A DNA stretch of 64,000 bases from assembly GCF_036379515.1 (NCBI RefSeq), contig NZ_DASVGN010000036.1, positions 3,007 to 67,006 of the forward strand, given 5' to 3'. Below are positions 1,542-32,561 of this stretch, piece after piece; position 1 is the stretch's first letter; every line of letters starts with the position of its first letter. Under the pieces are notes generated by a model, which was not told the DNA's origin, ran no database searches, and saw nothing but the letters and a program-made list of their open reading frames with translations. The position numbers were made by a program, and so were the translations under genes. Source of the stretch: Castellaniella sp. (lineage in GTDB: Bacteria; Pseudomonadota; Gammaproteobacteria; Burkholderiales; Burkholderiaceae_B).

Positions 1542-1619
1542 AACAGAGTTTCGCGCCTACTTCCCATCACCCACGGCCCAGCAGCCTTCCTGCGGGCCAT
1601 CACCCCCCTGTACCCGTGT

Positions 1620-2594
1620 GTGGCGCTGCACACGATCCGGCAGGCCATGCGCGGGCCTGTCTGGAGCATCCCCATGCTGACCCACGCAACCCAACTGATC
1701 AGAACGCCCTCCGCATCCGCCAGACGCCTGGAAGAAGCCATGCGCTTTGCGCACCGCAAGGCGGCCGAGGCCACAGCCCGGTCCCCCGCTGCTGGCCTGG
1801 ACATCCGACCCTTTGTTGTCCCAGGGCTGTCAGTGGCCTCGCGCGCCATCCCGAACCACATCGCCCGTTCGGGGATCTTCGCCCCAATCCGACGCGGGGC
1901 GAGCATCATGCACAAGGAGACCGTGTTCCTTGCAGCACGCAACATCCAGATCAAGGGCAGCGGCGAACAGCTCTCGGAAGACCACGCCGACATCTGGATG
2001 CACGCCATGTACCTGCAAGCCACCTGCCCAGCGGGGCAGCGCCCGGTCGTGAACCGTGCAGATTTCCTGCGCGACATTGGCCGCAATACGAGCGGAGCGA
2101 GCTACCAGTGGCTGCACGACGGGATGAAGGATCTCGCACGCTTCACCCTGTGTATTGAGGCCAGGCGCCCAGACGGGTCGGCCAAATACAGCTTTGGCAT
2201 GCACCCCGCCTGCCGGGTGTTGCCCATGATGGGAGGCTTCGACTACGCCGACGGTATCTATACCCTGGTCATTGACCCGCGCTGGGCACAGATCTTCGGC
2301 AACCGGGAATACGCCCTCATCGACTGGGAGGCCCGCCAGAAACTACGCGGCAACCTCGCACGCAGCCTGCAACGGCTCATCGCAACATCCGTCGACGCCC
2401 AGCAGCGCTACAGCCTGCAATGGCTAAAGGATCGGGCGCGCCATACCGGGCACCTGAGAAACTTTCGGGCCGCGCTCCTGAAAGCACTGGAAGAGCTGGC
2501 TGATCTGAACCTGGTCGCAGACCCCAAAATCGAGATCGAAAAAAGTCGTGAAGTGGCCAGCTGGATCCGCAACGGCGGCCGCACCGCATCGTAA
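1620..2594 (+). CDS. trfA: TrfA-family plasmid replication initiator (start uncertain: GTG 1620, ATG 1647 or ATG 1674)
   Basis: The block SRAIPNHIARSGIFAPIRRG...IKGSGEQLSEDHADIWMHAMYL resembles the conserved TrfA core as I recall it. The gene is directly followed by iterons and DnaA boxes. Confidence 0.7.
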   Translation: MALHTIRQAMRGPVWSIPMLTHATQLIRTPSASARRLEEAMRFAHRKAAEATARSPAAGLDIRPFVVPGLSVASRAIPNHIARSGIFAPIRRGASIMHKETVFLAARNIQIKGSGEQLSEDHADIWMHAMYLQATCPAGQRPVVNRADFLRDIGRNTSGASYQWLHDGMKDLARFTLCIEARRPDGSAKYSFGMHPACRVLPMMGGFDYADGIYTLVIDPRWAQIFGNREYALIDWEARQKLRGNLARSLQRLIATSVDAQQRYSLQWLKDRARHTGHLRNFRAALLKALEELADLNLVADPKIEIEKSREVASWIRNGGRTAS

Positions 2595-2764
2595 TAAGAA
2601 GGCGCCCTAGGGCGCCAATCCGACCCTCGGATTGAGGCCTCAAATCGCCTAAAAACCGGCCTGTGGATAACTCATCCAGGCCATCGTAATAAGAAGGCGG
2701 TGGCGTCGTAATAACAAGGCGCTTTATCGTAATAAGAAGGCGCTTTCGTCGTAATAAGAAGGCG
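2588..2764 (+). repeat. Five direct 17-bp iterons (A/G)TCGTAATAAGAAGGCG
   Basis: Copies at 2588-2604, 2683-2699, 2705-2721 (one mismatch, AAC for AAG), 2726-2742 and 2748-2764. The first copy overlaps the trfA stop codon. Confidence 0.85.
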
Positions 2765-2866
2765 GGCACGATCACTGAAATCTAGCAACCATGCGGGTTT
2801 CGAGTCATCGAAACCACGCTCTACCTTTCTTCTACCTTATCTCTACCAGAAGCTGTCTGTGGATAA
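2588..2866. other. Candidate vegetative origin (oriV): iterons, two DnaA boxes and phased TCTACC repeats
   Basis: TGTGGATAA, the exact reverse complement of the DnaA-box consensus TTATCCACA, occurs at 2662-2670 and 2858-2866. TCTACC occurs three times with 11-bp spacing (2820, 2831, 2842). The region is adjacent to trfA. Confidence 0.7.
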
Positions 2867-3039
2867 GTCTGCCTGCCATCAGGCGTGATCGCCACTCCCC
2901 CAGACCCTCTCAACGCGCCATGCTGCACAGCCGCTTTGGCGGCTGCATCGGTCAGCAACGAAACTACATCGGCCCATTCGGGCTGTACCTCACCCCATCT
3001 GCCATCACTGCCCTCAAGCCATAGGGCAAAGGAGTTCTC

Positions 3040-3510
3040 ATGTCCCAAAATCCGCACGCAAATCTCGACACCCGGATGCTTGCCATCGCCCAACGCGCCG
3101 CCCGCGAAGGGATTGGCGCCCTGAGCCTGGGCGAAGCGCTTACCGCCGCCCTGGTGCTAGATCGCAACGACTGGCTGCAGGAGCGCGGCTACGGCATCGC
3201 CGACGCCCTGGACCGCATCGGCCCGGACTGGGCCGCACGCATCCCGGTCGTCGCCCGGCAGTTCCAGACCGATCTGGCACAGGCCCAGTTGCGATTTTCC
3301 TTTGAAATCCTGCCACGCAAGAGCGAGGGCGAAGGCTACCTGCTCCGCCTGCTCGACCAGGGCCAGGAAGTCGGCTGCGGGCACTTTCCCGCCCGTGGCC
3401 AATCCGTGCGCTTTGCCGACGACCAGTGCGCCTACGACGAAGCCCATGCAGCGGGCCTTGCCTGGCTGGAAGGCAAGCAGGCAGCCGCCCTTCCCGCCCT
3501 GCACCACTGA
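3040..3510 (+). CDS. Hypothetical protein
   Basis: 156-aa ORF with a good RBS (AAAGGAG about 7 nt upstream of ATG 3040). Codon usage matches the backbone. No family recognised. Confidence 0.55.
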   Translation: MSQNPHANLDTRMLAIAQRAAREGIGALSLGEALTAALVLDRNDWLQERGYGIADALDRIGPDWAARIPVVARQFQTDLAQAQLRFSFEILPRKSEGEGYLLRLLDQGQEVGCGHFPARGQSVRFADDQCAYDEAHAAGLAWLEGKQAAALPALHH

Positions 3511-3527
3511 ACCCATCAACATTGCCC

Positions 3528-4007
3528 ATGACCGATACCCCACCCGATACCGACCCCATCGCCCGGTACCGTGCCGTGCTGGAAGCCCTGGATCCGCGTC
3601 TGCGGATTGCCTCCAAATTGCGCGCGGTATTCCCCCTCATCGAAGCCCAGATCGACTCGGGCGTGCCACACGCCGCTGTGCTGGACGACCTGAAGGCTGC
3701 AGGCCTGCCGGTGCAAACCAGCACCTACACCACGACGCTCTACCGCTGGCGCAAGGCAAAGCGGCAGGCAGCCGATGAAACCGACCAACCGCGCGCATCC
3801 GTCGCCGAGCCCAGCGGCTCCCCCACTACCAAACCTTCGTCACCCCCGCTGCCAGCCATCCAGGGGCGCCCGAACGGTATCCAGACGCCCGGAGATCTAC
3901 GCAAGATCCGCGACATGCGCATCGACCTGGACGCCCTGCGCCGCGAAGGCCTGGCGAACCGCGCCAAGACCTCGCAAGACACCAAAACCCAGAACGACAA
4001 GGAATGA
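3528..4007 (+). CDS. Hypothetical protein (occupies the position of stbA upstream of the stbB-like gene)
   Basis: ATG 3528 begins MTDTPPDTDPIARYRAVLEAL... The C-terminal half is Pro/Ser-rich and basic. An stbA-like role is inferred from position only. Confidence 0.45.
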   Translation: MTDTPPDTDPIARYRAVLEALDPRLRIASKLRAVFPLIEAQIDSGVPHAAVLDDLKAAGLPVQTSTYTTTLYRWRKAKRQAADETDQPRASVAEPSGSPTTKPSSPPLPAIQGRPNGIQTPGDLRKIRDMRIDLDALRREGLANRAKTSQDTKTQNDKE

Positions 4008-4011
4008 ACCC

Positions 4012-4719
4012 ATGAAAGTCGCAGTCCTGAACTACACCGGATCGGTCGGCAAGACCGTCGTCGCCTCGCACCTGCTGGCCCCCCGCATGAACGGAGCCCA
4101 GATCTTTGCTGTGGAGTCCACCAACGAAACCGGCGCGGACCTCGGCCTGGCCGTCGATCAGTTGCGCGGTGAACACTTCGGGAGGCTCTTTCGGGAGCTG
4201 CTCACCCGTGACGACGCCATCGTGGACGTGGGGGCCAGCAACATCGAGGATTTTCTGACCCACATGATGCGCTACGAAGGAGCCCACGAGGAAATGAGCT
4301 GCTTCGTGCTGCCCGTCATCAACACCGGCAAGGCCCAGCGCGAAACCATCAAGACCGTGGCCGCCCTGGCCGAGCTGGGTGTGAATCCGGAGCGCGTGCG
4401 CATCCTGTTCAACAGGGTCGAGTCCAGTGTCGAGGATGAATTCCCCTCGATCCTGGCCTATGCCGCGAAGACCGGCGAAGTGCAGGCGAACCCCAAGGCC
4501 GCCGTCTACGAAAACGAAGTCTTCGAGCTGCTGGCCGATCTGCGCACCACGCTCGCCGACGTGCTGGCCGACCAGACAGACTACCGGGCACTCCTGAAAG
4601 CCGCCGACCGCAGCGACCATGCGCGGATTTCTCAGCTGAGTAACCGGCACGCCCTGCGCGCCCTGGCCCAGCCGGTGGACCGGCAGATGAATGCGGCCTT
4701 TGCTGCGCTCTTTGCATGA
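4012..4719 (+). CDS. stbB: StbB-like ParA/MinD-superfamily ATPase (plasmid stability/conjugation)
   Basis: The N-terminus MKVAVLNYTGSVGKTVVASHLL carries a deviant Walker A, as in IncW-type StbB. The ORF-track start at 3775 is an upstream extension. Confidence 0.6.
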   Translation: MKVAVLNYTGSVGKTVVASHLLAPRMNGAQIFAVESTNETGADLGLAVDQLRGEHFGRLFRELLTRDDAIVDVGASNIEDFLTHMMRYEGAHEEMSCFVLPVINTGKAQRETIKTVAALAELGVNPERVRILFNRVESSVEDEFPSILAYAAKTGEVQANPKAAVYENEVFELLADLRTTLADVLADQTDYRALLKAADRSDHARISQLSNRHALRALAQPVDRQMNAAFAALFA

Positions 4720-4729
4720 ACCTCACGTC

Positions 4730-5182
4730 ATGGACACTACGCCACAACCAGCCGCAGGCCTGGCTGCAAGTCCTGCTCGCACGAAGCTGGATCTGCTGTA
4801 CCACGATGTGCTGGGCGAAGTTGCCAGCCTCGTGGATCGGCTCGAAACGGTCAACGCAAGCCTGGAGACCGTCCAACAGCAGATCCAGGTCGTGGCCGAC
4901 ACCCAGCAGGTCCTGCCCCAACAACTGGCCCGGCATCTGGCCACCACCCTGGAAGCCACCGCCAAGCCGATCCACCAGCAGCATCAACAGACCATCCAGG
5001 CCATGCTGGACTCTACCAGCACCCGGCTGGATCACCTGGCCCAGGAGGCGGCCCAGTGGGCCCGCATCACGCACCAGTCGGCCCGGCGCATAGCACTCAT
5101 CGCCGCCGTCATTGGCGGTGCCGCCGGTGTGCTGGGCGGGCTGCTCGCTGGCCTGGCCCTGGGCCAGTGGCTCATCCCCTGA
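4730..5182 (+). CDS. Hypothetical coiled-coil protein with a C-terminal transmembrane anchor
   Basis: ATG 4730. The central region is Gln/Leu-rich and the C-terminus is hydrophobic (IALIAAVIGGAAGVLGGLLAGLALGQWLI). Confidence 0.5.
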   Translation: MDTTPQPAAGLAASPARTKLDLLYHDVLGEVASLVDRLETVNASLETVQQQIQVVADTQQVLPQQLARHLATTLEATAKPIHQQHQQTIQAMLDSTSTRLDHLAQEAAQWARITHQSARRIALIAAVIGGAAGVLGGLLAGLALGQWLIP

Positions 5183-5198
5183 TTGCACGAAGGCCCCC

Positions 5199-6797
5199 AT
5201 GTCTACCCTGATCTCCCCCATCACCCGGCGGCGCATTGCTGCCTTTTCCCTAGCGCTTTTTCCCATTGCGGCCTGGATGACCGCCGCCACCTACGGCAGC
5301 GGCATCGCCTGGCAAGACTGGAATCGCCAGATGGCCTGGCATTTCGTGAAGCTCACCCCTGGCTACCCCTTGCTTTACGGGGCGCTGGGCGTGGGCCTGA
5401 TGCTTGCCCTGGCCTTGATCCTCTTTATCGGCCGCACCGCGAAAACCGAGGGCTTCGAAGGCGCGGCCTACAAGCGTTTCGTGCGCGGCACCCGAATGAC
5501 CACGGCAAAGCACCTGGCAAAGCTCTGCACGGAACCTGGCAAACAGCAGATTGACGTGGCTGGCATCCCCATGCCCACGGCGAACGAAAATCTGCACCTG
5601 CTGGTGAGCGGTGCCACGGGGTCGGGCAAGTCGGTACTGCTGCGCAACATGGCGGCGTCCGTCCTGGCGCGCTCCCGCTGCCATCGATCTCATCTGCCGG
5701 GCCAGACACCTAAGCGAAATGACCGCATGATTGTCATCGACCCCAATGGCGATCTGCTGAGCAAATTCTGGCAACCCGGCGACGTGATCCTCAACCCCTA
5801 CGACGCCAGAACCCAGGGCTGGTCCTTCTTCAACGAAGTGCGTGCCGACTACGACTGGAAACGCCTGGCGCATTCCCTGGTGCCCATGAGCCAGGACAAG
5901 AACGCCGAGGAATGGAATGATTTCGGGCGGTTGCTGCTGCGCGAAACCGCAAAGAAGCTGCACCGGCTGCAAGGAACGGAAGCCAGCATCATGGATCTGT
6001 TCCGCCTCTGCACCATCGAAGACCCGAAGGTCTTGAAACAATTCCTGGATGGCACGCTGGCTGAATCCCTGTTCGTCGGCTCCAGCGAGGCCAGCAAGGC
6101 GCTGTCGTCCGCCCGATTCGTGCTCTCCAACAAGCTGTCGGAACACACCAGCATGAAGCCTGGCACCTTCTCCATCCGTGACTGGATGGACAGGCCGGAC
6201 GGCGGAAACCTGTACATCAACTGGCGCGAAGACATGATGAGTTTCATGCGGCCACTCGTGTCCTCCTGGGCCGATGTCTTCATCACCTCGATTCTGTCCA
6301 TGCCCGAAGGCACCGGCCGGCGCTGGTGGCTGTTCATCGACGAGCTGGCCAGCCTGGAAGCCCTACCGTCATTGGAGGCTGGCCTGACCAAGGGCCGCAA
6401 GAATGGGCTGCGCATCGTCGCAGGCCTGCAGAGCACATCCCAGCTGGAACACCTGTACGGCAGGACGATGGCCACCACCATCCGGGCGAGCTTTCGCAAT
6501 CTGGTCGTGCTGGGTGGATCCCGCACCGATCCGCAGACTGCCCGCGATATGAGCGAAAGCCTTGGCAAACACGAGGTCGAGCGGCCAAAATACAGCGTTA
6601 GCCGCAGCGTCGATCATCGGAATACGTCGGATAACATGGATCGGACGGTGGAGGATGCGGTTACGGCAGCGCAGATTCAAGCGCTGCCGGTGTTGGAAGG
6701 GTATGTGGCTCTGGCGGGGGATTTGCCGGTTGCGAGGGTTAAGGTGCCAATTCAGCAATTTGATGGGAACGCAGCGCCATTCCAGGATGGGAAATGA
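5199..6797 (+). CDS. virD4: Type IV coupling protein (VirD4/TrwB family)
   Basis: Two N-terminal TM segments, Walker A VSGATGSGKS, Walker B-like WWLFIDELASL, and a typical T4CP C-terminus (LPVLEGYVALAGDLPVARVKV). G+C and codon usage drop visibly over the last ~200 nt. Confidence 0.85.
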   Translation: MSTLISPITRRRIAAFSLALFPIAAWMTAATYGSGIAWQDWNRQMAWHFVKLTPGYPLLYGALGVGLMLALALILFIGRTAKTEGFEGAAYKRFVRGTRMTTAKHLAKLCTEPGKQQIDVAGIPMPTANENLHLLVSGATGSGKSVLLRNMAASVLARSRCHRSHLPGQTPKRNDRMIVIDPNGDLLSKFWQPGDVILNPYDARTQGWSFFNEVRADYDWKRLAHSLVPMSQDKNAEEWNDFGRLLLRETAKKLHRLQGTEASIMDLFRLCTIEDPKVLKQFLDGTLAESLFVGSSEASKALSSARFVLSNKLSEHTSMKPGTFSIRDWMDRPDGGNLYINWREDMMSFMRPLVSSWADVFITSILSMPEGTGRRWWLFIDELASLEALPSLEAGLTKGRKNGLRIVAGLQSTSQLEHLYGRTMATTIRASFRNLVVLGGSRTDPQTARDMSESLGKHEVERPKYSVSRSVDHRNTSDNMDRTVEDAVTAAQIQALPVLEGYVALAGDLPVARVKVPIQQFDGNAAPFQDGK

Positions 6798-6982
6798 CTG
6801 CAATCGGCCAGAAGAAGAATTCCCGCTGATTGACCTCGACTCCGGTTTCAGGCTGGTAACGCTCAATGACTGGTATTGGTGATTCCTGCTGTTCGGGCAC
6901 CGAGCCGTGAATGACTCAGATCAGCCTGGTGCGGCTGGTCAAATAGGTATTGTAGCCAGCCTGCGGTTAAGGGCGATGCACA

Positions 6983-7009
6983 ATCATATGCAGCCGTTCA
7001 GCATATGAT
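6983..7009. promoter_or_regulatory. Perfect 9-bp inverted repeat ATCATATGC-N9-GCATATGAT overlapping the first in-frame ATG of the helicase gene
   Basis: Arms at 6983-6991 and 7001-7009, read directly from the sequence. It could be an operator or RNA hairpin, and it casts doubt on ATG 7005 as the true start. Confidence 0.3.
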
Positions 7010-10000
7010 AAAAATAGACATAAAAAAACGTGGAAGGCCATGTATGCGTCAAAAGCTTAAGCTGAGCGTCTCACCAAGATCAGAATTTCTGACAAAATTT
7101 GGTTCGAGCATCAAGCAGGTGAAAGCCGCCGAGAAAAAAAATGGGACTCCTGCCTTACGCCTAGGTATCGATGAAAACGGCACTCAGCTCCTAATCAAGA
7201 CTTGGCCGCACGTGCCGGGCGCAGGTGATACGGACCTGCGTGAAATTTGGCACCATGAAATTCGTCAACTAAACCGTATCTTGGGAACACGTGGCGTGGG
7301 CGACATCATCGCTGAGCTCGAGGAGTCCCATGTTGACGAGCAGGGCTATCACCTGACGATTCGAACGGAACAGCGCCAGCCACTTGAGTCGATCTTAAGA
7401 AAAAACGAGCGGCTGCAGCACGCGACTCGCTTCAGTGTCAACGGTAGGCATCTCCTGTGGGCGAACTTTCTCCGTCTCGCCAAAGGTTTGGATTTACTGC
7501 ATCTGCAAGGTTTGCTGCACCGGAACCTCAATACTTGGTCAGTGCTGACCGCAGACACCAATGAACCCGATTTTCAGCTAACCGGGTTTGAGTGGTCCAT
7601 GCGCATCGTCGGGCTGAACGCATCCGATAAAAGTTACGCACCAGGCACGCAAGGCAGTCACTACTCGTTTTCACGCGATTGGCACGCCTTGGGTGAGCTA
7701 GCAGTCAAACTGTTCGACATCAATCCAGCACGGATAACGAACACCACAATTCCCATCTATGAAGTTGCTGAAAATTTGACGGCGGCAGAGGCACGCCTAA
7801 TTCGACAGTTGCTCCAAATACTGCCGACACAGCAACTCTATGGAAAGGTGGTCATTGCCGCCATCGAGAAAATCATCATGTCCTTGCAGGCCGCGATACA
7901 GCGTGAAGAACTGCTGTACCACCTTGTCGTCCCGGTCGTATCGAACAACACACTCGTGGACGATATCCGGGAAGCATCTGACTACCAGATCGAAGCCGGT
8001 GACGAGAACGCCCAGCTTGAATTTATTGAAAATGATCTTACAAATCCGACAGCCTTATTGCTGTCCGACGACCGACTCGCCATTCGTGGTTCCTTGCTCA
8101 CATACTACCTCCAAGATTTTCGTCGCACACGCGAAAAGATTCCGTCGAATTGGGAGGTCGCTTACTGCGCATCGACCAGCATCACCCGTAACTCCAGCCC
8201 GAACCCCGTCAATGCACGTCCGTTGCTCGCGAATGCTCTTCAGCTGACACCGCTGTCAAAGAGCAAAACGATGTTTCGCGGACGTGCACGCGGTACCTCG
8301 TGGAGGACACTGAGGGCACAACTCAAACCGACCCGTCAGGCGGATGCAAGAGCATCCAACCTCTACAGGGCTTTGGCATTGACGCAGATGCTGGACTATG
8401 CGTTGGCGGCTAGCGATGTGTTTCCAGTCAAATTGGTGGGCAATTCGCGCATCGACAATCACAGTGGGCAGCATCAGATCACGCTGGAGTCGCGACACGA
8501 CGATGAACTAGACAAACTGTCGCAGGCCTTGGAGTTAAAGGATCCACCAGCGACTCGCTTGCGCGAGATGCTTACGAGCGACAAAACAGCAGATGATCGT
8601 AAGACAAACTGGTGGTTAAGTTCAGTGCCAACGATTGGAGACCGGCAAGCTAATCCTAACGAGTGGCAATTTCGGCAGGAAGCCGCCGGGCCGCGCGGCG
8701 AACAGCAGTATCTCTTCATAGGCGAGAATCCTCCACCTGCTGGCCCGGAATTTTTCCTGGTCCCGAGCGATTCCACAGGCCGGGATTCTCAACTCGAACG
8801 ACGCATCAAAAGCCTCGCCGTGCTCGGCGAGCATCGCGAACTCTCACGCATGCTGATCGACCCACGCCGCCGCGTGATCGATAGCAACGAAAGTGTTAAT
8901 GTAGATGATGGCTTTTCGGAGCTGGACGCTTCCAAGCAAGTCGCACTCAGAAAGATCGTCGGGACCCTCCCACTTTTCATGCTGCAAGGCCCTCCCGGCG
9001 TCGGAAAGACGCGCCTAGTACGTGAGCTGGTGCGTCAACGCCTTGAAGTGGATCAGACGACACGCATGTTGCTAACTGCGCAAAGCCATCACGCAGTCGA
9101 TCACCTGTTGCACGAGGTCGTGGGTGCCTTGAGCCAGGAGGTCAGCGAGGACGCGGTGGTCATTCGCTGCACGACCCCCGACAGGATGGACACGCACAAC
9201 AGGTTCGATGTCTCCAATCAGACCAAGAATTTGTTGGCCGGATTGCGTACTAGCGCACTCTGCCGTGATGCGTCTGAAGCCCTGCAAAACAAAGTTCATT
9301 CATTGTGTGCGACGTTCGAACTGGAGGGCACGGAGGGCACCCAACAGGCAGCACCGAATGCCAAGCGTGCGCTGGAAAGTTTGATGCTGCAGTCGGCCAA
9401 CCTGCTTTTTGCCACCGCCAACTCTGGCGATATCCAGGGACTAATCGAAGATCGAAGTCAATTCGATTGGACAATCGTGGAGGAGGCCGGCAAAGCTACC
9501 GGAATGGAGTTAATTGCCCCAATGCTTCTATCGCCACGTAGGTTGATGATCGGGGATCACCGGCAATTACCCCCATTTGGCGAAGAACGAACGCTTTCTC
9601 TGCTTGAACGCCCCACCGCCGTTAAAAAAGCGTTAGAGATGATCGACCCGATAGTTGGCCGTGCCTTGCGCGGCAGCATTGTGGATGAGGTATTCAACGA
9701 CCTGCGTGTTCAAGATGATCAGTTTGATCAGAATGAATTCGTAAAACTTTGCCAAGATGCGGGAAATCTCTTTTCATTGTTCAGTTCGAGCATCCAGCAG
9801 GAATACAGTCGACTGGAAAGGAATCCAAAAAGCAGGCCAATTGCTGCCGCTTTGACACACCAGCATCGCATGCACCCGGCGATCGCAGCAGTGGTTTCGC
9901 ATGCCTTTTATGAGGATAAGCTTCTCACCGATCCACAGGCAGCGGAGCGATTCACCCAGCAACCGAGTCTGCTTGCATGGGAAGAGAGTGCGAAGTTGCC

Positions 10001-10595
10001 CGATCAGCCGATAATATGGGTCGACGTGCCCTGGGTGCAAAAAACAAAACTAATGAAGAACGGAGAATCATTTCCCCGATTTACAAACCAACTGGAGTTA
10101 CAAGCTTGTCGAAGAATTATTGAAGCAGCCCGTACAAGCACTTTTAATATGCCGACGATGGCCGTATTGTCACCCTACAGTCGCCAAGTGCGCGGGCTGG
10201 CGGAAAGCCTGGGAGAAGGTACGGCCCACTCTGAACTGTCGAAATTTCGGCTACCGCCTGGCCACAAGGCCTATTGCAATACTGTGGACTCGTTCCAGGG
10301 CAGCGAAGCCGACCTCGTGGTGATATCGCTAGTACGAAACAACGGCTATGGTGCCGTGCGCGCTGCGCTGGGGTTTTTAGCGGACGAACGTCGCATGAAC
10401 GTATTATTGAGTCGCGCGCGTTATCGCATGATAATTGTCGGAAGCCTCGATTTTCTTCGAGGGATCAGTTCCAATCCGCAAGATCGCAAGGAAGACATTG
10501 GCTTCATCAATAGGATTCTCGAGTTCTTTGACGACAAAAACCCCAATGAATTTGTTACCGTTGTACCTGTCGATCAACTGGGAGTGACGCCATGA
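7005..10595 (+). CDS. Kinase-like (degenerate) N-terminal domain fused to an Upf1-like SF1 helicase; MkoA-like component of a type I Mokosh-like system (alternative start ATG 7044 with GGAAGG RBS)
   Basis: Kinase-like landmarks: LLIK(65)TW, EIRQLNRIL, LLH(172)RNLNTWSVL, TGFE(193-196). SF1 helicase motifs: GPPGVGKT (nt 8988-9011), TAQSHHAVD, IVEEAGKA, LMIGDHRQLPPF, HQHRMHPAI, VDSFQGSEADLVVIS, NVLLSRARYRMIIVG. G+C is lower than the flanks. Confidence 0.85.
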   Translation: MIKIDIKKRGRPCMRQKLKLSVSPRSEFLTKFGSSIKQVKAAEKKNGTPALRLGIDENGTQLLIKTWPHVPGAGDTDLREIWHHEIRQLNRILGTRGVGDIIAELEESHVDEQGYHLTIRTEQRQPLESILRKNERLQHATRFSVNGRHLLWANFLRLAKGLDLLHLQGLLHRNLNTWSVLTADTNEPDFQLTGFEWSMRIVGLNASDKSYAPGTQGSHYSFSRDWHALGELAVKLFDINPARITNTTIPIYEVAENLTAAEARLIRQLLQILPTQQLYGKVVIAAIEKIIMSLQAAIQREELLYHLVVPVVSNNTLVDDIREASDYQIEAGDENAQLEFIENDLTNPTALLLSDDRLAIRGSLLTYYLQDFRRTREKIPSNWEVAYCASTSITRNSSPNPVNARPLLANALQLTPLSKSKTMFRGRARGTSWRTLRAQLKPTRQADARASNLYRALALTQMLDYALAASDVFPVKLVGNSRIDNHSGQHQITLESRHDDELDKLSQALELKDPPATRLREMLTSDKTADDRKTNWWLSSVPTIGDRQANPNEWQFRQEAAGPRGEQQYLFIGENPPPAGPEFFLVPSDSTGRDSQLERRIKSLAVLGEHRELSRMLIDPRRRVIDSNESVNVDDGFSELDASKQVALRKIVGTLPLFMLQGPPGVGKTRLVRELVRQRLEVDQTTRMLLTAQSHHAVDHLLHEVVGALSQEVSEDAVVIRCTTPDRMDTHNRFDVSNQTKNLLAGLRTSALCRDASEALQNKVHSLCATFELEGTEGTQQAAPNAKRALESLMLQSANLLFATANSGDIQGLIEDRSQFDWTIVEEAGKATGMELIAPMLLSPRRLMIGDHRQLPPFGEERTLSLLERPTAVKKALEMIDPIVGRALRGSIVDEVFNDLRVQDDQFDQNEFVKLCQDAGNLFSLFSSSIQQEYSRLERNPKSRPIAAALTHQHRMHPAIAAVVSHAFYEDKLLTDPQAAERFTQQPSLLAWEESAKLPDQPIIWVDVPWVQKTKLMKNGESFPRFTNQLELQACRRIIEAARTSTFNMPTMAVLSPYSRQVRGLAESLGEGTAHSELSKFRLPPGHKAYCNTVDSFQGSEADLVVISLVRNNGYGAVRAALGFLADERRMNVLLSRARYRMIIVGSLDFLRGISSNPQDRKEDIGFINRILEFFDDKNPNEFVTVVPVDQLGVTP

Positions 10596-12361
10596 AAACC
10601 GTGAAAGTATTTCTTCCGGTCCTCAGAGGGCGGATTTCTTTTATTGTGGATCGAGGTCGCCAGTGGAGCGTGGTAGAGCACCTACTTCTGGACGCGCTCA
10701 CGCGTCGCGAATGGTCCACAAGTGCGCTGGCAGAACACGGCAATTTGCCGCGGCGAGTCGTCATTGAAGCACTTGTGCGATTGATGCGTGCGGGGTGGGT
10801 CGAACTCAGCGTGGAAAAAGGCGACGTCAATTTTCGTGCGACCGAAATTGGCAAGGTGGCCGCTACGCACAATGAATTACCGAAGCTATCGGATCTTCAG
10901 AAGCGCCCAACCAACTATATTCTCGACATGGTATGTGGCGAGATTTTTCGCAACAGGGATTTGCTGACGCAATCCAAAGAGGAAATTAAGAAAATACACG
11001 ATCCCGGGAATTGCGTGTGGGTAGAACCGCGTGATTGGCACACCGAGGTGGACGTCAATGAAGCTCTGCAGGTTCTGCTGGACAATGACGAAACTTTCGT
11101 GACCGGACAACCCGGCGGGATCTTTCGACGCTGGATCATGGTGGTAGTCCGCGGAGGTCGAGTCGTATCTGGTTTACCGGAAAATCGCACCCTGGACAAA
11201 CTTCGTGCGGTCGTGCTGCAAGCAGCAGATGACGCAGAGGACGAAAACGCTGTTCATGTGACACCGACGGACGAACATGAACTCGAGCGCATCCAACTGC
11301 CCCAGGCAGCTGTCTGGGACATTGGCTTTAGCCTGAAGGATCTCGTGCTGGGCGGTCCGGCGCATCGCAAGAGCCTGCTGCATATGCTGGAGACTGCTAA
11401 GACGCACCTCTATATACATTCAACATTTATTAGCGCTGAACGAGTATTAAATCTCTTGACACCCATTCAGGATGCGATCAACCGTGGAGTGCATATTCAT
11501 ATCTTCTGGGGACAAAACGAGGAATTTGAAGAGCTCTCCACGACACGCACCGCTATCGGCAATCTTCGCAAACACCCTCAGATTCAGGCGCTGGCTGAGC
11601 ACCTGACGTTTCACCCACATTCAACAGGATCGCATGCCAAATTATTGCTGGCCGATGCCGGAACCAACGGTGAATATATAGCGGTTTTGGGCTCGTGCAA
11701 TTGGCTCACCAGTGGCTTCGAGTCCTATGAGGCGTCTGTGGTTCTGCGCGACCCTAGGATGGTGGACGAAGTCGTGCGCTGCTTTGGGCGCTTGGTTTGT
11801 ATGCATGACGGGTTGTGGTCAGAGCTGGCGGGGGACGTCGTCCGGATCTCAGACAGTTTGAAGAATGCTCCTTTGCCCAGGGTGACTGGACAAGGTAGCA
11901 TCATCTCCGGCGCCCAGCACAACCATCTGGTGCTATGCGCACGCGATGAGGCTCGCCAGTCCATCCTTCTTGCGAGCCACCGGCTTGGTGTGGCGGCAGG
12001 TCCCGGTATTCTCGCGCCGTTGCAGAGCGCGGCTGCTGCAATGCCACAGCTTGCAGTCGAAGTCTACTATTGTAGAAAAACTGCCCCCGTTCGCAAGAAA
12101 GATGAACGGCACCTCACGGAAGCGGCTTTAAGCTCAGGCGTAAGCTTGACGCCGATCCAGTCACCACGGGTTCATGCCAAGATACTGGTTTGGGACGACA
12201 ATAATGCAGTGATTACTTCCTTGAACTGGCTCTCCGCCGATCAGACTCAAAGCTCGAGCCTTTCCGAAATCGGAGTTCATCTAAGGGTCGCGGGCATTGG
12301 CCGGTATATTTCGGAGCATCTGCGGGCCGAGATTCAATTAGCCGAAACCGCTGGGTCCTAG
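10592..12361 (+). CDS. Double-HKD phospholipase-D-family nuclease with a winged-helix-like N-terminus; MkoB-like component
   Basis: The start overlaps the upstream stop (ATGA at 10592-10595). HKD motif 1 is HAKLLLAD...GSCNW (nt 11633-11656). HKD motif 2 is HAKILVWD...TSLNW (nt 12173-12196). Both fit HxK(x)4D. Confidence 0.85.
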   Translation: MKTVKVFLPVLRGRISFIVDRGRQWSVVEHLLLDALTRREWSTSALAEHGNLPRRVVIEALVRLMRAGWVELSVEKGDVNFRATEIGKVAATHNELPKLSDLQKRPTNYILDMVCGEIFRNRDLLTQSKEEIKKIHDPGNCVWVEPRDWHTEVDVNEALQVLLDNDETFVTGQPGGIFRRWIMVVVRGGRVVSGLPENRTLDKLRAVVLQAADDAEDENAVHVTPTDEHELERIQLPQAAVWDIGFSLKDLVLGGPAHRKSLLHMLETAKTHLYIHSTFISAERVLNLLTPIQDAINRGVHIHIFWGQNEEFEELSTTRTAIGNLRKHPQIQALAEHLTFHPHSTGSHAKLLLADAGTNGEYIAVLGSCNWLTSGFESYEASVVLRDPRMVDEVVRCFGRLVCMHDGLWSELAGDVVRISDSLKNAPLPRVTGQGSIISGAQHNHLVLCARDEARQSILLASHRLGVAAGPGILAPLQSAAAAMPQLAVEVYYCRKTAPVRKKDERHLTEAALSSGVSLTPIQSPRVHAKILVWDDNNAVITSLNWLSADQTQSSSLSEIGVHLRVAGIGRYISEHLRAEIQLAETAGS

Positions 12362-12608
12362 CCTGCCGTCCACCTACTGGCTAATGCTAAGCGTGAACCG
12401 GTCTGGCGACTGCGACCGGCCCTAGCGCCGCAAAACCGACGCCTGTGGGTGAAAGTAGAACGGCAACAATGGGTCGAAAACAGCCATCCACAATTCCTGT
12501 GGACAACTCTGTGTAGTCCCGCTTCCCTTCCCTCCCAACAGCCAGCACTAGCGCGCCTTTCGCGCCTGCTGGCTGATTTTTTACCATCCCCCACTTCCCG
12601 GAGCACCC

Positions 12609-15509
12609 ATGATCTCGCATAGCCAGATCTATCGGGCCCGCGCGGCCCTTGCGACCCATTACTATGCCGACCAGGCCGACGACTACTACAGCCGCGATGG
12701 CAGCGCCGCAACCTGGCAGGGCGATGGTGCCCGGCGTCTGGGTGCCGTCGGCGCCATCGATCCCGCCCGGTTCAAAGCCATGCTTCAGGGCGATTTTGGC
12801 TACGGCATTACGGCCAGTCAATCCGTACGCAAGGACGCCAAGGCCCGCGCGGCGCTGGACCTGACCTTCGGCGCTCCCAAAAGCATCACGCTACAGGCAC
12901 TGATAGGTGGCGACGAGCGCCTGATCCAGGCGAACGATGATGCCGTAACCACGGCCCTGACTTACGTTGAGCAGCACCTGGCCATGGGTCGCAGGAAGGA
13001 AAGCGGCAAGTCGCGGGTGGAGCACACGGGCAATCTCATCATCGCCAAGTTTCGCCACGAAACGGCCCGGCCCACCGAGGATGCCGCGCCGGACCCGCAT
13101 CTGCACATCCACGCGCTGCTCATGAACCTGACGCAGCGAGCTGACGGTCAGTGGGTGGCACTCTCGAACGAACAGATCTTCCAGCTGCTGCGGGTGACAG
13201 ACTCCATCTACCAGGCAACGCTAGAGCGCAACGTCCGGGCGCTGGGCTACGCCGTGCGCCACGAGAAGAACCATATTGAGCTTGCCCACATCAGCCGGGA
13301 GCAGATCGAATTCTTCAGCAAGCGCAGCGCGGGCATCACAGCGGAGCTCGCCGCACGCGGCACCAGCCGCGACCAGGCTCCGCACGCACTGCGCCAGGGC
13401 ATCACCCTTGCCCACCGGCAGCAGAAGACTCAAGCCTACAGCCGGGCCGGGCTTCAACAGGAATGGCAGGCATCGGCCCAAGCCATCGGCATGCGGTTTG
13501 ACCAGACGGGCCTGCAGGCGACCATCCAGCCTCAGCAGGACACCAGCAAAGATTCCGATCTGGTCGCCCAGGCATCGCTGGACTGGGCGATCCAGCATTT
13601 GGCCGAGCGTGAATCCGTCATGCCGCTGGCCGATCTGCTGCAAAGCGCCGTGCGCCACGCGGGTGGCCATACGGATGTCACCGCCATCCAGTCGGCCATC
13701 CACGCACGGGTACAGGCGGGGATTCTCATCCAGGAAGCCGCGCACTATCGCAGCACCCAGGACATGAAGGCCGCGCCCATGACCCGCGACGGTTGGGCGA
13801 CTGAGGTCGTGCGCCTGCGCGGGGTCTCGCATGACGCCGCCCTGCAACTGGTTGATCAGGCCATCACCCAAGGACGGCTCTTGATGGAAAGCCCGCGCTA
13901 CGCCACACGCAAGGCCTATGAGGCAGAATCCCGGATCCTGACTGCTGAAGCCAGCGGCCGCAGCACCTGGCAGGCCCCCATCACCAGCACCGTGGCCGAA
14001 TCCGGGCTGGATGAACGCCTGACCCCAGGCCAGCGCGAAGCCGTGATGCTGATTGCCAGCGACACCGACCAGATCGTCGGCATCCAGGGCCTGGCCGGTA
14101 CGGGCAAATCCTTTGCCCTGCAAAACGCCCAGGCCATCCTGCAGCAACAGGGCCACAGCCTGGTAGCGCTCGCCCCCTATGGTGGCATGGTACGGAATCT
14201 GCGCAAGGACGGCGTGCCCGCCAATACCGTGGCCTCGGTTCTGACTGCCCGTGACAAGCGCCCCTTCACCACCCAGCTGGGCCCGCAGACCGTGGTGGTG
14301 ATCGACGAAGCCGGAGTCGTGCCCGTGCGCCAGATGGACAGACTGCTGGCGCTCATCCAGCCCACCGGCGCAAAGGTGGTACTGCTGGGCGACACGGCCC
14401 AGACCAAGGCCATCGAGGCCGGCCGCGCCTTTGCCATGCTGCAGGAACACGGCATGAAGACCGTGCTCATGGGCGACATCCAGCGCCAGCGCTCTGAACG
14501 GCTGCGCCAGGCCGTGCAGTTGGCCGCCCATGGCCATGCCAGCCGCTCCCTGCCCTTGCTGGATCGGGTGCTGACCATTCCAGATCAGTTCGCCGTCGAT
14601 GAACATGGTCAGAAGGCGCGCGACAGCTCGGCCCGGTATGAGGCCATCGCCCAAGCCTATGTGGGGGTGCCCACCGATCAGCAGGCCGCCACCATCGTCG
14701 TGACCGGCACCAATGCCTCGCGCCAGGCGATCAATGCCCGTATCCACGCCCTGCGCGGCCTGGAAGGCAAGGGCCAGCACTGCCAGCTACTGTCCCGCCA
14801 CGACACGACACGGGCCGAACGCAGTGTCGCCCGGTATTACACCGTGGGCGACATCGTCGTGCCGGAACGCGATTACCAGTGCGGCCTGAAGCGCGGCGAA
14901 ATGTACCGGGTGACCAGCATCCCCCGTCATGACCGCATCACGGTGCAGGCGGTGGACTCCAGCACGTTGAAGCCTGAACTCATTGAAATCATCCCTCGGA
15001 CCATGGGCAAGCTCTCGGTCTACCACCTGAACGAATCCGAGCTGTCCATGGGCGACCAGGTACGCATCACGCGCAACGATGCCCAGCATGACCTGGTTAA
15101 CGGCCAACTGGCGAAGGTCGTCGCCATCGAGGCCGCCACCGTCACCATCGAGACAGGCGATCGCCACATCACCCTGCCTACCGACCGACCACTACATCTG
15201 GACTATGCGTACACCACCACGGCACACAGCGCTCAGGGTCTGACCTGCGACCGCGTGCTGTACAACGCGGAAAGTTTCAGCCGCACCACGGCCCAGGATA
15301 CCTACTACGTCAGCATCTCGCGCGAGCGGCATAAGGTCATGGTGTTCACGGATGATGCCGACAAGCTGCCCGAACGGGTGGACCGACTGGGGTTCAAGGG
15401 GCTGGCGCATGACCTGGCCCAGGCGCACGTCGAAAGCCCTGCTCCACACCTGCACCGACCTGATGTGACACTGGAACGGGAGGCAGAATCCTCAATGGAG
15501 ATCAGCTGA
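12609..15509 (+). CDS. trwC: MOBF-family relaxase/helicase (TrwC/TraI-like)
   Basis: The N-terminus (HYYADQADDYYSRDGSAATWQGDGARRLG) and the His triad (HETARPTEDAAPDPHLHIH) are typical of TrwC relaxases. The RecD-like helicase part has Walker A GLAGTGKSF. Length is 966 aa. GGAG RBS upstream. Confidence 0.9.
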   Translation: MISHSQIYRARAALATHYYADQADDYYSRDGSAATWQGDGARRLGAVGAIDPARFKAMLQGDFGYGITASQSVRKDAKARAALDLTFGAPKSITLQALIGGDERLIQANDDAVTTALTYVEQHLAMGRRKESGKSRVEHTGNLIIAKFRHETARPTEDAAPDPHLHIHALLMNLTQRADGQWVALSNEQIFQLLRVTDSIYQATLERNVRALGYAVRHEKNHIELAHISREQIEFFSKRSAGITAELAARGTSRDQAPHALRQGITLAHRQQKTQAYSRAGLQQEWQASAQAIGMRFDQTGLQATIQPQQDTSKDSDLVAQASLDWAIQHLAERESVMPLADLLQSAVRHAGGHTDVTAIQSAIHARVQAGILIQEAAHYRSTQDMKAAPMTRDGWATEVVRLRGVSHDAALQLVDQAITQGRLLMESPRYATRKAYEAESRILTAEASGRSTWQAPITSTVAESGLDERLTPGQREAVMLIASDTDQIVGIQGLAGTGKSFALQNAQAILQQQGHSLVALAPYGGMVRNLRKDGVPANTVASVLTARDKRPFTTQLGPQTVVVIDEAGVVPVRQMDRLLALIQPTGAKVVLLGDTAQTKAIEAGRAFAMLQEHGMKTVLMGDIQRQRSERLRQAVQLAAHGHASRSLPLLDRVLTIPDQFAVDEHGQKARDSSARYEAIAQAYVGVPTDQQAATIVVTGTNASRQAINARIHALRGLEGKGQHCQLLSRHDTTRAERSVARYYTVGDIVVPERDYQCGLKRGEMYRVTSIPRHDRITVQAVDSSTLKPELIEIIPRTMGKLSVYHLNESELSMGDQVRITRNDAQHDLVNGQLAKVVAIEAATVTIETGDRHITLPTDRPLHLDYAYTTTAHSAQGLTCDRVLYNAESFSRTTAQDTYYVSISRERHKVMVFTDDADKLPERVDRLGFKGLAHDLAQAHVESPAPHLHRPDVTLEREAESSMEIS

Positions 15510-15850
15510 CGCCATTCCGCAGCAAAACCGTCTGCCGGACGCCCGCCGGGTGTCCCCAAACTGCATCCGTCTTGTCGCTGATTTGCCCGGCAACTGTCAC
15601 CATATCGTCTTGTCTCCGTATGCTGCCCGTATCCACAGCGTACCCAGCATGTCCCCAAGGTGAAATTTCCTGTCCTGGTCTGAATGTCTACGCGCCATTC
15701 GGCCACAGTCGTGGCCGCCATTCCTCCCGTCGGATCAATGGCTTGCGCCATTCCAGTGCCCTATCTGTCCTACATTACCAGAACCAGCCCGTTCCGGGCA
15801 AGCCATTGATCCGCAACGCCTTTCCTCACCCCGCCAGGGGTGCGTCATGT
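15510..15850 (+). other. Candidate oriT region (low confidence)
   Basis: Non-coding DNA directly 3' of the relaxase gene. GCCATTC occurs at least four times. A perfect 15-bp inverted repeat GGATCAATGGCTTGC has arms at 15732-15746 and 15798-15812. CGTCTTGTC occurs twice (15569, 15606), and the second copy, GTCTTGTCT, resembles the IncW-type nic core GTATTGTCT as recalled. Confidence 0.3.
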
Positions 15851-16243
15851 GTGGGACGTTTAAGGCCACAAATGAGCGGCAGTGAATTTGGGGACTGAAC
15901 GGCCCAGCCTGGCCGGAAACCGGGCAGGCGGCGTCACAGCACAGGGCCCCAGGCGAAGCCTGGGAACGAACCAGGCATCAGCACCCGGTAGGCCACAGGA
16001 CAGATCCAGGATGGCCAGCATCAGGCCCACCAGCAGCAGCCCGGAAAACGCAACAAGGCCCGGACAATGCCGGGCCAATGTGCAATGCAGGATCTGGACG
16101 GGATCACCCGGCCAGGATCACGCAGTTTCTCAAAACGAAATATCCGATATTTCCAGCGCTGCAGAGCCGGCCGTCGGGGTAGTGGCCGCAGTTCGGCCGC
16201 TGCACCCCTTCGTCCTACCTACCGCTGCCTTCGCCTCCCTCGC

Positions 16244-16552
16244 CTAGCCGCCAGGCAGGCCCCCACAGCCCATCGGGCAGCAGTCGGGCTCCAAGCCGTG
16301 GCTGCATAGCCCTTGGGACTTCAGCTCCCGGTCCAGCTGGGCCAGGCCGTCTCTATCCAGATACCCGGCATCCTCTGCCATTGAAATGGCCTCGGCCCTG
16401 AATTCGTGCGGTACATCGCCCAGTAAAACCTCTATGTCGAAGCTGAAATTACGCTGAAAAACTTCGTAGGCGCAGCCGCAGCGGGCAATATGGCGGTTGC
16501 TGGCTGCGGTCACCTTGGCACCCCATGCGGCCCCGAACTCGTCTTTCGTCAT
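16244..16552 (-). CDS. Hypothetical small protein with a Cys-rich C-terminus
   Basis: 102-aa ORF, ATG 16552 with AGGAGA about 7 nt upstream. It ends ...CSHGLEPDCCPMGCGG. It is the first gene after the candidate oriT and is preceded by repeat copy A. Confidence 0.55.
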   Translation of the reverse strand: MTKDEFGAAWGAKVTAASNRHIARCGCAYEVFQRNFSFDIEVLLGDVPHEFRAEAISMAEDAGYLDRDGLAQLDRELKSQGLCSHGLEPDCCPMGCGGLPGG

Positions 16553-17040: not shown

Positions 17041-17844
17041 TCAGGCGTCTGCGGCGTCGAGGTGCGCAATAACCTGCTTGGCGGCCCACGTCGCATTTTC
17101 GGTCAGCTGACGCACCCAGGCGCTGCGCATCGGACTCCAGCGAAAGCCGCAACGCTTCAGCACGTCGCGGGTGTCCTTGGCCGGTTTGCCGTCAAACAGG
17201 AACATGGCGCGGTTTTCCTGCGGATCTTCGCGATAGGTGTAGCCGTCTCCTGCCTGCTCGGTCTCGGTGCGCTCAGCCACACGCTGCAACTCCTTGATGC
17301 GGGCCATGATGCGGTGGATGTTGGCGTTGTTGTTCTGCAGCTGGAACGGGACAAAGCCGATGCGGTTCATATAGTCCGGGGTCACGAGTTCGCGGGCGCG
17401 TTCCGCGTAGGTGAGGCCGGAATCCACCAGAGCGGCCACCTGGGCATCGGCCCCAGCCTTGGCATGGCGACGCAAAATGGCGTTGATGGCCTTCATCGTT
17501 TCCTGAATGGCCTGCAGGCCGGCCAGCTTCGCCTGCAGTTTCTCGATGGCAGCTGGGTCGTCGCTGGAAATCCCGCCTTTGCCCACGGCGGCGGCCTTGT
17601 CGGCATAGTGCTCAGCCTTCTTCTGCAACTCGAAGGACTTTTCAAAGCATTGGCTGATTCGTTCCCGGTACCGGCGGTCGGATCGTTCCGAATGATGCCC
17701 CACCAGGATGGGCTGGCCCATGGGGATGGCATCGGCCATGCGGCTGGCCTGGGACGCGACCGCATCAGATTGTGCATGTGCCTGCCCTGCTCGTTCTTCA
17801 TAGCGGGCCTTGCGCGCTGCCTGCTTGGCTTCGTAGGTGTTCAT
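17041..17844 (-). CDS. DUF3560-like protein
   Basis: ATG 17844 with GGAGAA RBS. The sequence MNTYEAKQAARKARYEERA...PILVGHHSERSDRRYRERI...FRWSPMRSAWVRQ matches my recollection of the DUF3560 family common on plasmids and ICEs. The ORF-track start at 18081 runs into repeat B. Confidence 0.7.
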   Translation of the reverse strand: MNTYEAKQAARKARYEERAGQAHAQSDAVASQASRMADAIPMGQPILVGHHSERSDRRYRERISQCFEKSFELQKKAEHYADKAAAVGKGGISSDDPAAIEKLQAKLAGLQAIQETMKAINAILRRHAKAGADAQVAALVDSGLTYAERARELVTPDYMNRIGFVPFQLQNNNANIHRIMARIKELQRVAERTETEQAGDGYTYREDPQENRAMFLFDGKPAKDTRDVLKRCGFRWSPMRSAWVRQLTENATWAAKQVIAHLDAADA

Positions 17845-17879
17845 GGTCTGATTCTCCAAAACAAGGGTTGAACTGCTTT

Positions 17880-21940: not shown

Positions 21941-22059
21941 TGGGCAGCAGCGTGACGTGCGGCGGCATGATGGGGTTGATGGGTATCGGCGGGCTACTGG
22001 TGCTCGTCCTCCTCGTCCTTCTGATCGCGGTACTCGTCAAATATCTGTTCAAGAAATAG
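21937..22059 (+). CDS. Unannotated 40-aa Met/Gly-rich single-TM peptide
   Basis: Not in the ORF track because it is under 60 aa. ATGA overlap with the preceding stop. It translates to MMGSSVTCGGMMGLMGIGGLLVLVLLVLLIAVLVKYLFKK. Confidence 0.4.
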   Translation: MMGSSVTCGGMMGLMGIGGLLVLVLLVLLIAVLVKYLFKK

Positions 22060-23837: not shown

Positions 23838-23846
23838 GGCTCTGAA

Positions 23847-32558: not shown

Positions 32559-32561
32559 CAG

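Follow-up and report, generated by a model that had tools for sequence, protein, structure and literature searches.

A predicted type I Mokosh gene pair in the defence-cargo slot of a Castellaniella integrated conjugative element

Type I Mokosh anti-phage systems were defined by a protein that combines a Ser/Thr-kinase (STK) domain with a COG1112 RNA helicase, together with a separate phospholipase D (PLD) nuclease, and mutants of the helicase ATP site and of the PLD active site abolished defence by the Escherichia coli homologues (Millman et al., preprint 10.1101/2022.05.11.491447). The DNA considered here is a window of 64,000 nucleotides (nt) from Castellaniella sp., that is, the whole stretch analysed (contig NZ_DASVGN010000036.1, positions 3,007 to 67,006), to which all coordinates refer unless another locus is named. 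It contains two overlapping genes, mkoA and mkoB (mkoAB), which are read as an intact anti-phage system of the type I Mokosh family, borne as cargo by a Castellaniella integrated conjugative element (ICE), a reading to which a probability of about 0.88 is assigned.

Family assignment and organisation of the gene pair

MkoA matches the PADLOC MkoA profile PDLC03920 almost end to end (residues 41-1181 against profile positions 13-1103 of 1112, E 4.3e-259; MkoA residues are numbered in the frame beginning at 7005), and MkoB does the same with the MkoB profile PDLC03922 (residues 1-580 against positions 3-602 of 610, E 1.6e-97). mkoA and mkoB lie side by side in the same orientation as a single unit, with an ATGA overlap and joint transfer; MkoA carries a COG1112/Upf1-like superfamily 1 (SF1) helicase with an intact ATP site, as well as a kinase fold whose kinase activity is doubtful, its catalytic Asp/Asn/Asp having become Asn/Ser/Gly; and MkoB is a PLD-family protein with an intact HKD active site. 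Judged by sequence, every defining feature of type I Mokosh is present, and mkoAB is a typical new locus of an already described family, one that PADLOC or DefenseFinder would call automatically. A preliminary description of this DNA had proposed a member or divergent relative of type I Mokosh and had staked that claim on matches to the MkoA and MkoB profiles; these are strongly positive and membership is upheld, whereas divergence is not, since the match is full-length and typical.

Within MkoA, Pfam AAA_11 (residues 640-858, 2e-27) and AAA_12 (residues 938-1147, 1e-40) enclose the six helicase motifs quoted in the preliminary description, all of which occur in the gene 1 translation: Walker A GPPGVGKT (662-669), IVEEAGKA, GDHRQLPPF, QHRMHPAI, VDSFQGSEAD, and LLSRAR. 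Across 53 homologues Walker A and motifs II-VI do not vary, and profile matches of the RecA domains in the PDB are led by Upf1 (9e-39) and IGHMBP2 (5e-38), with Sen1 and DNA2 also retrieved. In front of the core, the AlphaFold2 model places a helix at 448-470, strands across 473-587, and a second helix at 593-626, an arrangement that probably represents, by analogy, an Upf1-type stalk and 1B barrel (residues ~448-640). Residues 460-1215 of E. coli MkoA were aligned to Upf1 by Millman et al. (10.1101/2022.05.11.491447). The middle region (residues ~301-447) has no Pfam or PDB sequence match, and in the Foldseek search of residues 1-640 it was masked by kinase matches. This region and the N-terminal part of MkoB had been described earlier as unrecognised; neither is peculiar to the locus, both being conserved family-wide in MkoA/MkoB.

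Two plus-strand open reading frames (ORFs), 7005..10595 (1196 amino acids, aa) and 10592..12361 (589 aa), share an ATGA in which gene 1 stops and gene 2 starts. The two-gene cassette at 7005-12361 of the preliminary description is correct in its pair, ORFs and overlap, and its gene 1 start is likely to need correction to 7044. No Shine-Dalgarno sequence precedes the ATG at 7005, GGAAGG at 7032-7037 lies 6 nt 5' of ATG 7044, public gene calls give 1183 aa, and a 90%-identical copy (locus L002) has an in-frame stop within the 13 codons preceding M14; for these reasons a start at 7044 is most likely. A Castellaniella sp. metagenome-assembled genome encodes a 100% identical MkoA of 1183 aa (P0001). 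The ATGA overlap, with GGGAG before mkoB, fits translational coupling. A weak scan found no terminator-like site between the coupling-protein gene and mkoA, nor between mkoB and the relaxase gene, and transcription of the pair by read-through from the ICE transfer genes would be possible. Rfam yielded no RNA family in 6000-13500.

Comparison with L002 and L003, whose flanks (TctC, CoA-transferase, and GntR genes in a chromosomal-looking context) are unrelated to the window, delimits a mobile unit of exactly the two genes, moving as one as far as the shared DNA indicates. Upstream of the start codon, the cassette and the L002 relative share only 42 nt. GC content is 0.535 in the cassette against 0.60 in the rest of the window, and 0.51-0.55 over both genes against 0.59-0.66 in the flanks. 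The L002-shared segment begins at CATATG in both loci, and its left edge carries a perfect 9-nt inverted repeat (ATCATATGC / GCATATGAT, 9 nt apart, 6983-7009), which may be a recombination junction.

A word-indexed search at E<=1e-10 gave 143 MkoA and 240 MkoB homologues, and an exhaustive profile search gave 150 best representatives at 50% clustering, all at E<1e-150 and mostly full length. The overlapping junction recurs in L002 (a Betaproteobacterial metagenome contig), in Pseudomonas mosselii (L055), on an Agrobacterium pAt plasmid (L054) and, with an overlap of 17 nt, on the Rhizobium etli plasmid pRetIE4803b (L053); the overlapping pair is thereby kept from 90% down to 27% identity across Betaproteobacteria, Pseudomonas, and Rhizobiales plasmids. 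In the P. mosselii locus, whose Mokosh I is 42% identical, a SLATT_5-domain gene (13373-14086) that is absent from the window lies 25 nt 3' of mkoB and is possibly an accessory gene or an adjacent defence gene. Comparison of the window copy with the L002 copy by the Nei-Gojobori method gave ratios of non-synonymous to synonymous substitution (dN/dS) of 0.128 for mkoA and 0.138 for mkoB, and of 0.12-0.16 in each sub-region, the kinase-fold domain and the two unassigned regions among them; purifying selection therefore acts on both proteins throughout. Near-identity searches with the cassette, and with 3700-16300, gave no match among plasmids or complete E. coli genomes; the element is not a sequenced plasmid, and these searches brought up no E. 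coli homologue. A genome-contig scan with MkoA alone gave no confirmed relative, no E. coli names appear in the clusters of length-matched MkoA representatives, and tblastn against phage genomes returned partial helicase matches only, with no phage-borne Mokosh I.

Four other assignments were rejected. Type II Mokosh (MkoC) is contradicted by the two separate ORFs and by the partial nature of the matches that both proteins make to PDLC03924 (2e-15, 1e-14). DISARM DrmC in NCBIfam reaches 53.7 bits against a cut-off of 133, and no DISARM-type helicase or methylase domain occurs among the Pfam-scanned neighbours, which are conjugation genes. The PLuB helicase (NF040671) reaches 125.6 bits against a cut-off of 999, with the RecA2 region alone matching, and the match to the MADS MAD6 kinase is partial or below cut-off.

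Several points weigh against an intact defence system. Membership is assigned through profile matches rather than by direct comparison with the validated E. coli proteins, and the defence role of the Castellaniella pair is predicted from its sequence and setting. No plus-strand sigma-70-like promoter was detected in 6592-7044, by a scan that is itself weak (7 sites in total against 3.7 +/- 1.9 in shuffled sequence, near chance). The best fold matches of MkoB include phospholipases beside PLD3/PLD4, and a nucleic-acid substrate is putative. Others were unable to purify type I Mokosh (10.1101/2025.07.10.664194), and formation of an MkoA-MkoB complex is for that reason only assumed.

Table 1. Positions of the gene pair, its predicted domains and its conjugative setting in the window (pLDDT, predicted local distance difference test).
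Feature	Position	Strand	Basis and details
mkoA	7044..10595	+	1183 aa; PADLOC MkoA profile, identical public protein P0001, GGAAGG, upstream stop in L002
mkoB	10592..12361	+	589 aa; PADLOC MkoB profile, AlphaFold2 model
mkoA/mkoB ATGA stop/start overlap	10592..10595	+	sequence; GGGAG at 10580-10584
Transferable two-gene cassette	7002..12378	+	blastn against L002/L003; only DNA shared, 90% identity
MkoA N-terminal protein-kinase-fold domain	7083..7904	+	residues ~27-300; AlphaFold2, Foldseek, domain profile, hhalign
MkoA middle alpha/beta region	7905..8345	+	residues ~301-447; block pLDDT mostly 72-94, dN/dS 0.16
MkoA helix / beta-barrel / helix segment before RecA1	8346..8924	+	residues ~448-640; model secondary-structure order
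MkoA Upf1-like SF1 helicase core	8925..10454	+	Pfam, PDB profile matches, invariant motifs
MkoB N-terminal region	10592..11341	+	predicted hairpin and winged helix (residues ~1-90), then beta-rich domain (residues ~91-250)
MkoB two-lobed PLD domain	11342..12358	+	HKD1 at 11633-11656, HKD2 at 12173-12196
VirB11-type ATPase gene	246-1541		upstream of the pair
Type IV coupling protein gene (TrwB/TraD type)	5112..6797	+	Pfam TrwB_AAD_bind 2e-90, TraG-D_C 5e-20
Relaxase-helicase gene (TrwC type)	12609..15509	+	Pfam TrwC 2e-71, AAA_30 1e-44
Variable cargo slot of the ICE family	6814..12480	.	between coupling-protein gene and conserved ~125-nt region 5' of relaxase gene

The kinase-fold domain of MkoA

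The AlphaFold2 model of MkoA residues 1-640, based on 52 homologues, has a mean pLDDT of 82.5. Foldseek against the PDB gave 1369 matches at E<=1e-3, the best 50 of which consist entirely of protein kinases (HPK1, BRAF, Mnk, Nek7) and the Pan3 pseudokinase, at target-normalised TM-scores of 0.36-0.67. The N-terminal domain profile matches 870 distinct PDB kinase chains, with GCN2 (2e-10), PKR (1.9e-9), and the MLKL pseudokinase (9e-9) at the top. Judging from profile and fold matches, the nearest relatives of the domain appear to be the RNA- or stress-sensing eIF2-alpha kinases (GCN2, PKR, PERK) and the pseudokinases MLKL and Pan3, at a distant identity of 12-19%. The kinase-like N-terminus of the preliminary description is borne out as a fold, by Foldseek and the domain profile, but not in its canonical catalytic residues.

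The residue-level alignment with PKR sets 'LIHRDLKPSNIFL...KIGDFG' of PKR against 'LlHrnldawsvlt...qLtGFE' of MkoA, and an independent hhalign run against a manually entered PKA sequence gave the same residue mapping. N174 occupies the position of the HRD Asp (HRD reads HRN), S179 that of the catalytic-loop Asn, and G194 that of the DFG Asp (DFG reads GFE), whereas GCN2 and PKR carry all three canonical residues. MkoA retains the beta3 Lys (K65, by strand order) and the alphaC Glu (E85), and the domain has no glycine-rich loop. These replacements extend through the family. Position 174 is Asn in 51 of 53 close relatives and, among 118 distant representatives, Asn in 68, Ala in 13, Arg in 10, and Asp in only 4; Gly at position 194 and Glu at position 196 are each found in 53/53 close relatives and 114/118 distant representatives; the catalytic-loop Asn is replaced by Ser or Ala across the MkoA family. 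Plasmid copies from Rhizobium (35% identity) and Agrobacterium (27%) likewise lack both Asp residues.

With the Asp of HRD and of DFG and the Asn of the catalytic loop exchanged throughout the family, the "STK" domain looks best described as a pseudokinase, or at least as a non-canonical kinase. The competing interpretation is an active Ser/Thr kinase for which phosphorylation of MkoB, of host proteins or of phage proteins is a required step. In its favour are the published naming as an STK domain, the conservation of the K65 and E85 equivalents and the nearly invariant E196 beside G194, which could bind metal, and atypical kinases without the canonical residues exist. An active kinase is nevertheless considered unlikely, in view of the nearly complete loss of both Asp residues and of the catalytic-loop Asn in a mapping that the PKR alignment confirms, the missing glycine-rich loop, and the absence of a Pfam Pkinase match at E<=0.1. 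The published description names an STK domain, and the same founding preprint describes no mutant of it (10.1101/2022.05.11.491447). A literature search found no paper naming both Mokosh and pseudokinase.

A wider proposition, for which the odds are judged to be about even, is that the type I MkoA domain may be a conserved pseudokinase with an alternative, invariant T/G-G-F-E-W motif kept under purifying selection, and that the gap between coupling-protein and relaxase genes is a defence-exchange hotspot in which several occupants are candidate new systems. If this is true, the gating of type I Mokosh would lie with a pseudokinase that senses a ligand or partner, or with an unconventional enzyme activity, instead of with phosphorylation. 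Residue loss in the kinase domain extends over more than 100 sequence clusters and offers a direct and cheap way to probe the mechanism of type I Mokosh.

The conjugative element and its defence-cargo slot

The pair lies between a TrwB-type coupling-protein gene and a TrwC relaxase gene, in agreement with the earlier proposal that it is cargo on a conjugative element. Relaxases 74-95% identical to that of the window occur in 49 related loci (L004-L052) from Castellaniella, Pusillimonas, Pollutimonas, Bordetella, Alcaligenes, Achromobacter, and other Alcaligenaceae; since many of these loci are on megabase contigs or complete chromosomes, they are regarded as ICEs. None of the 49 contains Mokosh, and the window alone has it in the slot. 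Homology to 11 related ICEs stops at ~6739-6814, depending on the locus, and resumes at ~12470-12487, ~125 nt before the relaxase start. The gap between the two genes, measurable in 36 of the 49 loci, is empty (204-208 bp) in four (L018, L022, L041, L046) and elsewhere spans 0.7 to >9 kb, filled by unrelated cargo with a low GC content of 0.41-0.57.

The cargo of the slot in related ICEs is varied. PADLOC identified Gabija in L020 (GajA 3e-213, GajB 1e-249), Lamassu in L049 (LmuA 3e-284, LmuB E=0), and DRT type 3 in L028 (Drt3a 4e-94, Drt3b 3e-171). Further occupants are LmuB with PDC-M60 (L032), a C5-methyltransferase with HNH (L024, with similar ORFs in L025), a Type II methyltransferase (L027), the PADLOC candidate systems PDC-S11 (L012), PDC-S06 with PDC-S73 (L023), and PDC-S28 (L039), SIR2 (L013, with a same-size ORF in L048), and a CARF protein (L019), and the remainder have generic defence-like domains (NACHT, NERD with SEC-C, weak HEPN, ResIII) or no match. 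Because the slot holds such varied defence cargo in relatives (Gabija, Lamassu, DRT3, restriction-modification), the coupling-protein/relaxase gap is a defence-cargo hotspot of this Alcaligenaceae ICE family, here filled by Mokosh I, and its occupation by defence systems supports, by location, a defence role of mkoAB. It resembles defence hotspots known from other ICE families and is a small, well-delimited place to look for new defence systems.

Occupants without a PADLOC family lie, in the coordinates of their own loci, at 6815-9908 (L017), 6234-9708 (L035), 1352-3738 (L044), 8287-9789 (L016), 7007-9259 (L031), and 3780-5765 (L019). Pfam recognises nothing in some of them and generic domains only in the others (weak HEPN, NERD with SEC-C, NACHT, ORC-CDC6-like), and their location makes them candidates for undescribed defence genes.

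The same setting invites the explanation that mkoAB mainly serves the ICE, by destroying competing plasmids, ICEs or incoming DNA or by stabilising the element through addiction, with phage defence secondary. The pair does lie inside the transfer region on the strand of the coupling-protein and relaxase genes, with no promoter of its own and no intervening terminator-like site in the weak scans, and 38 of the 49 plasmids with MkoA homologues are typed as conjugative. This explanation appears rather improbable, however, given that a 90%-identical copy sits in a non-conjugative, chromosomal-looking context and that related ICEs carry classical anti-phage systems in the slot on either strand; moreover, as the slot is empty in four relatives, its cargo is unneeded for transfer and mkoAB is dispensable for conjugation.

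Several additional observations concern the surroundings of the slot. The conserved stretch of ~125 nt that precedes the relaxase gene begins, in the empty-site loci L046 and L018, with an inverted repeat, TTATCCACA-N5-TGTGGATAA, which we take to match the DnaA-box consensus; its counterpart in the window (12488-12506) is degenerate, ATCCACAATTCCTGTGGAC. This repeat could be a relaxase operator or part of the origin of transfer (oriT), and if oriT is located there the defence slot would adjoin the origin of transfer. A gene for a DUF3560 protein (17041-18081, minus strand, E 1e-36) is found downstream of the relaxase gene. Metal-resistance cargo of the element occupies 21957-25034, 31152-33302, 39888-42877, and 47923-49896, encompassing two multicopper oxidases (CopA-like), CopB, a CusS-type sensor kinase with its response regulator, a DsbD-like protein, and a P-type ATPase, with ResB and CcsA-type cytochrome c biogenesis genes (35987-39386, minus strand) beside the copper genes. 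Positions 55791-59256 and 61176-63577 (minus strand) hold genes for an SBF-family (sodium bile acid symporter family) transporter, a major facilitator superfamily (MFS) transporter and an FMN-reductase (possibly arsenic-related), and then, near the window end, the TniQ and TniB genes of a Tn5053/Tn7-like transposition module.

MkoB, a proposed mechanism and comparison with known systems

The AlphaFold2 model of MkoB has a pLDDT of 88.7 and a predicted TM-score (pTM) of 0.80. Pfam PLDc_2 matches the protein in two stretches (1e-14), and the two intact HKD motifs reported in the preliminary description are present as H348/K350/D355 with GSCN at 367-370 and H528/K530/D535 with S543/N545; neither these nor their companion (G/T)SxN motifs vary among 50 MkoB homologues. 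A single MkoB chain thus holds both halves of a PLD active site. The winged-helix-like N-terminus proposed earlier also finds support, in weak Pfam matches of residues 28-86 to HTH_27, TrmB, and MarR_2 (E 0.03-0.05) and in the helix-helix-helix-hairpin order of the model, in which residues ~1-90 would form a beta-hairpin and a winged helix. This N-terminal region contains the invariant residues W25, E29, E59, R63, L64, M65, and W69 and has a dN/dS of 0.16. The fold search of MkoB was dominated by PLD matches, which masked the beta-rich domain at 91-250.

MkoB has no PDB relative by sequence, and its Foldseek matches include the bacterial PLD 7e0m (1e-12), human PLD1/2, PLD3/PLD4 (entries with bound single-stranded DNA), and vaccinia F13. 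The presence of phospholipases D and phosphatidylserine synthase among the best fold matches, and the label 'cardiolipin synthase' that many sources attach to MkoB homologues, raise the idea that the substrate of MkoB is membrane phospholipid instead of nucleic acid, with membrane damage causing abortive infection once MkoA senses infection. This is held to be quite improbable: MkoB has a winged-helix N-terminus and no membrane segment predicted in the model, the PLD3/PLD4 entries with bound single-stranded DNA fit the fold equally well, PADLOC links the domain to the DISARM PLD-like protein DrmC and NCBIfam to the nuclease NucT, and the escape of T4-like phages depends on DNA glucosylation. 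A housekeeping pair for RNA surveillance or lipid metabolism, as generic public annotations ('AAA domain-containing protein', 'phospholipase D-like') would suggest, can be dismissed as extremely improbable for a low-GC pair that moves between unrelated contexts, is absent from 49 related ICE loci, occupies a slot otherwise holding defence systems, and matches defence-specific profiles end to end.

For the preferred reading, an anti-phage system, the following mechanism is proposed. MkoA and MkoB would be co-produced through translational coupling and act as a pair, as their overlapping junction suggests. MkoA would be sensor and motor, its Upf1-like SF1 core loading on and moving along phage-derived single-stranded nucleic acid at the expense of ATP, with RNA or intermediates of DNA replication or transcription as candidate substrates. 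The kinase-fold domain, lacking the catalytic residues, would probably be a regulatory or ligand-binding module rather than a phosphotransferase. MkoB would be the effector, its winged-helix head binding nucleic acid and its two-HKD PLD nuclease cutting the target via a covalent phosphohistidine intermediate. What the system acts on, the sequence of its steps, the association of the two proteins, and the contribution of the kinase fold are inferences. To evade a type I Mokosh, T4-like phages depend on DNA glucosylation and on the Alt ADP-ribosyltransferase (10.1101/2025.11.20.689424), a requirement that hints at the involvement of DNA or of a host factor.

Among systems that share parts of this design, the SF1B helicases Upf1, IGHMBP2, Sen1, and DNA2 have helicase-core motifs in common with MkoA but lack its N-terminal kinase fold and middle region, and the partner nuclease differs. 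Gabija GajAB, Hachiman HamAB, and DISARM DrmC follow the same logic of a helicase or ATPase sensor with a nuclease effector, although their folds and families differ from those of Mokosh; DrmC gives a weak PADLOC match to the MkoB PLD domain (1e-12), and the DISARM partner genes are absent here. The animal piRNA pair of the helicase MOV10L1 and the nuclease PLD6/Zucchini also joins an Upf1-family helicase with a PLD-family nuclease on single-stranded nucleic acid. PLD6 is a single-HKD homodimer anchored to mitochondria, without kinase-fold domain and winged helix, and homology between this pair and Mokosh is limited to domains only. The parallel between Mokosh and piRNA biogenesis was drawn by Cury et al., who noted that the eukaryotic proteins carry extra domains missing from bacterial Mokosh (10.1101/2022.12.12.520048).

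Type II Mokosh (MkoC, E. coli YjhR-like) likewise comprises an Upf1-like helicase and a PLD domain, but as a single fused gene without a kinase-fold domain, whereas the Castellaniella system has two genes and a kinase fold; the MkoC profile PDLC03924 matches one PLD region only (991-1124 of 1136), whereas MkoB has two HKD motifs. The closest system is the validated E. coli type I Mokosh (Millman et al. 2022), which, compared through profiles, has the same two-gene layout of a protein with kinase fold and Upf1-like COG1112 helicase followed by a PLD nuclease, with the helicase part at residues ~448-1196 of the Castellaniella MkoA and 460-1215 of the E. coli protein. It differs in host, Castellaniella being a member of the Alcaligenaceae, and in setting, here an ICE transfer-region hotspot. 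The lack of canonical catalytic residues in the kinase-fold domain is not raised in the papers searched. The locus itself adds one more typical type I Mokosh, in a Castellaniella ICE, and its added value lies in the family-wide pseudokinase signature, the exact boundaries of the cassette, and an ICE defence hotspot with several unassigned occupants.

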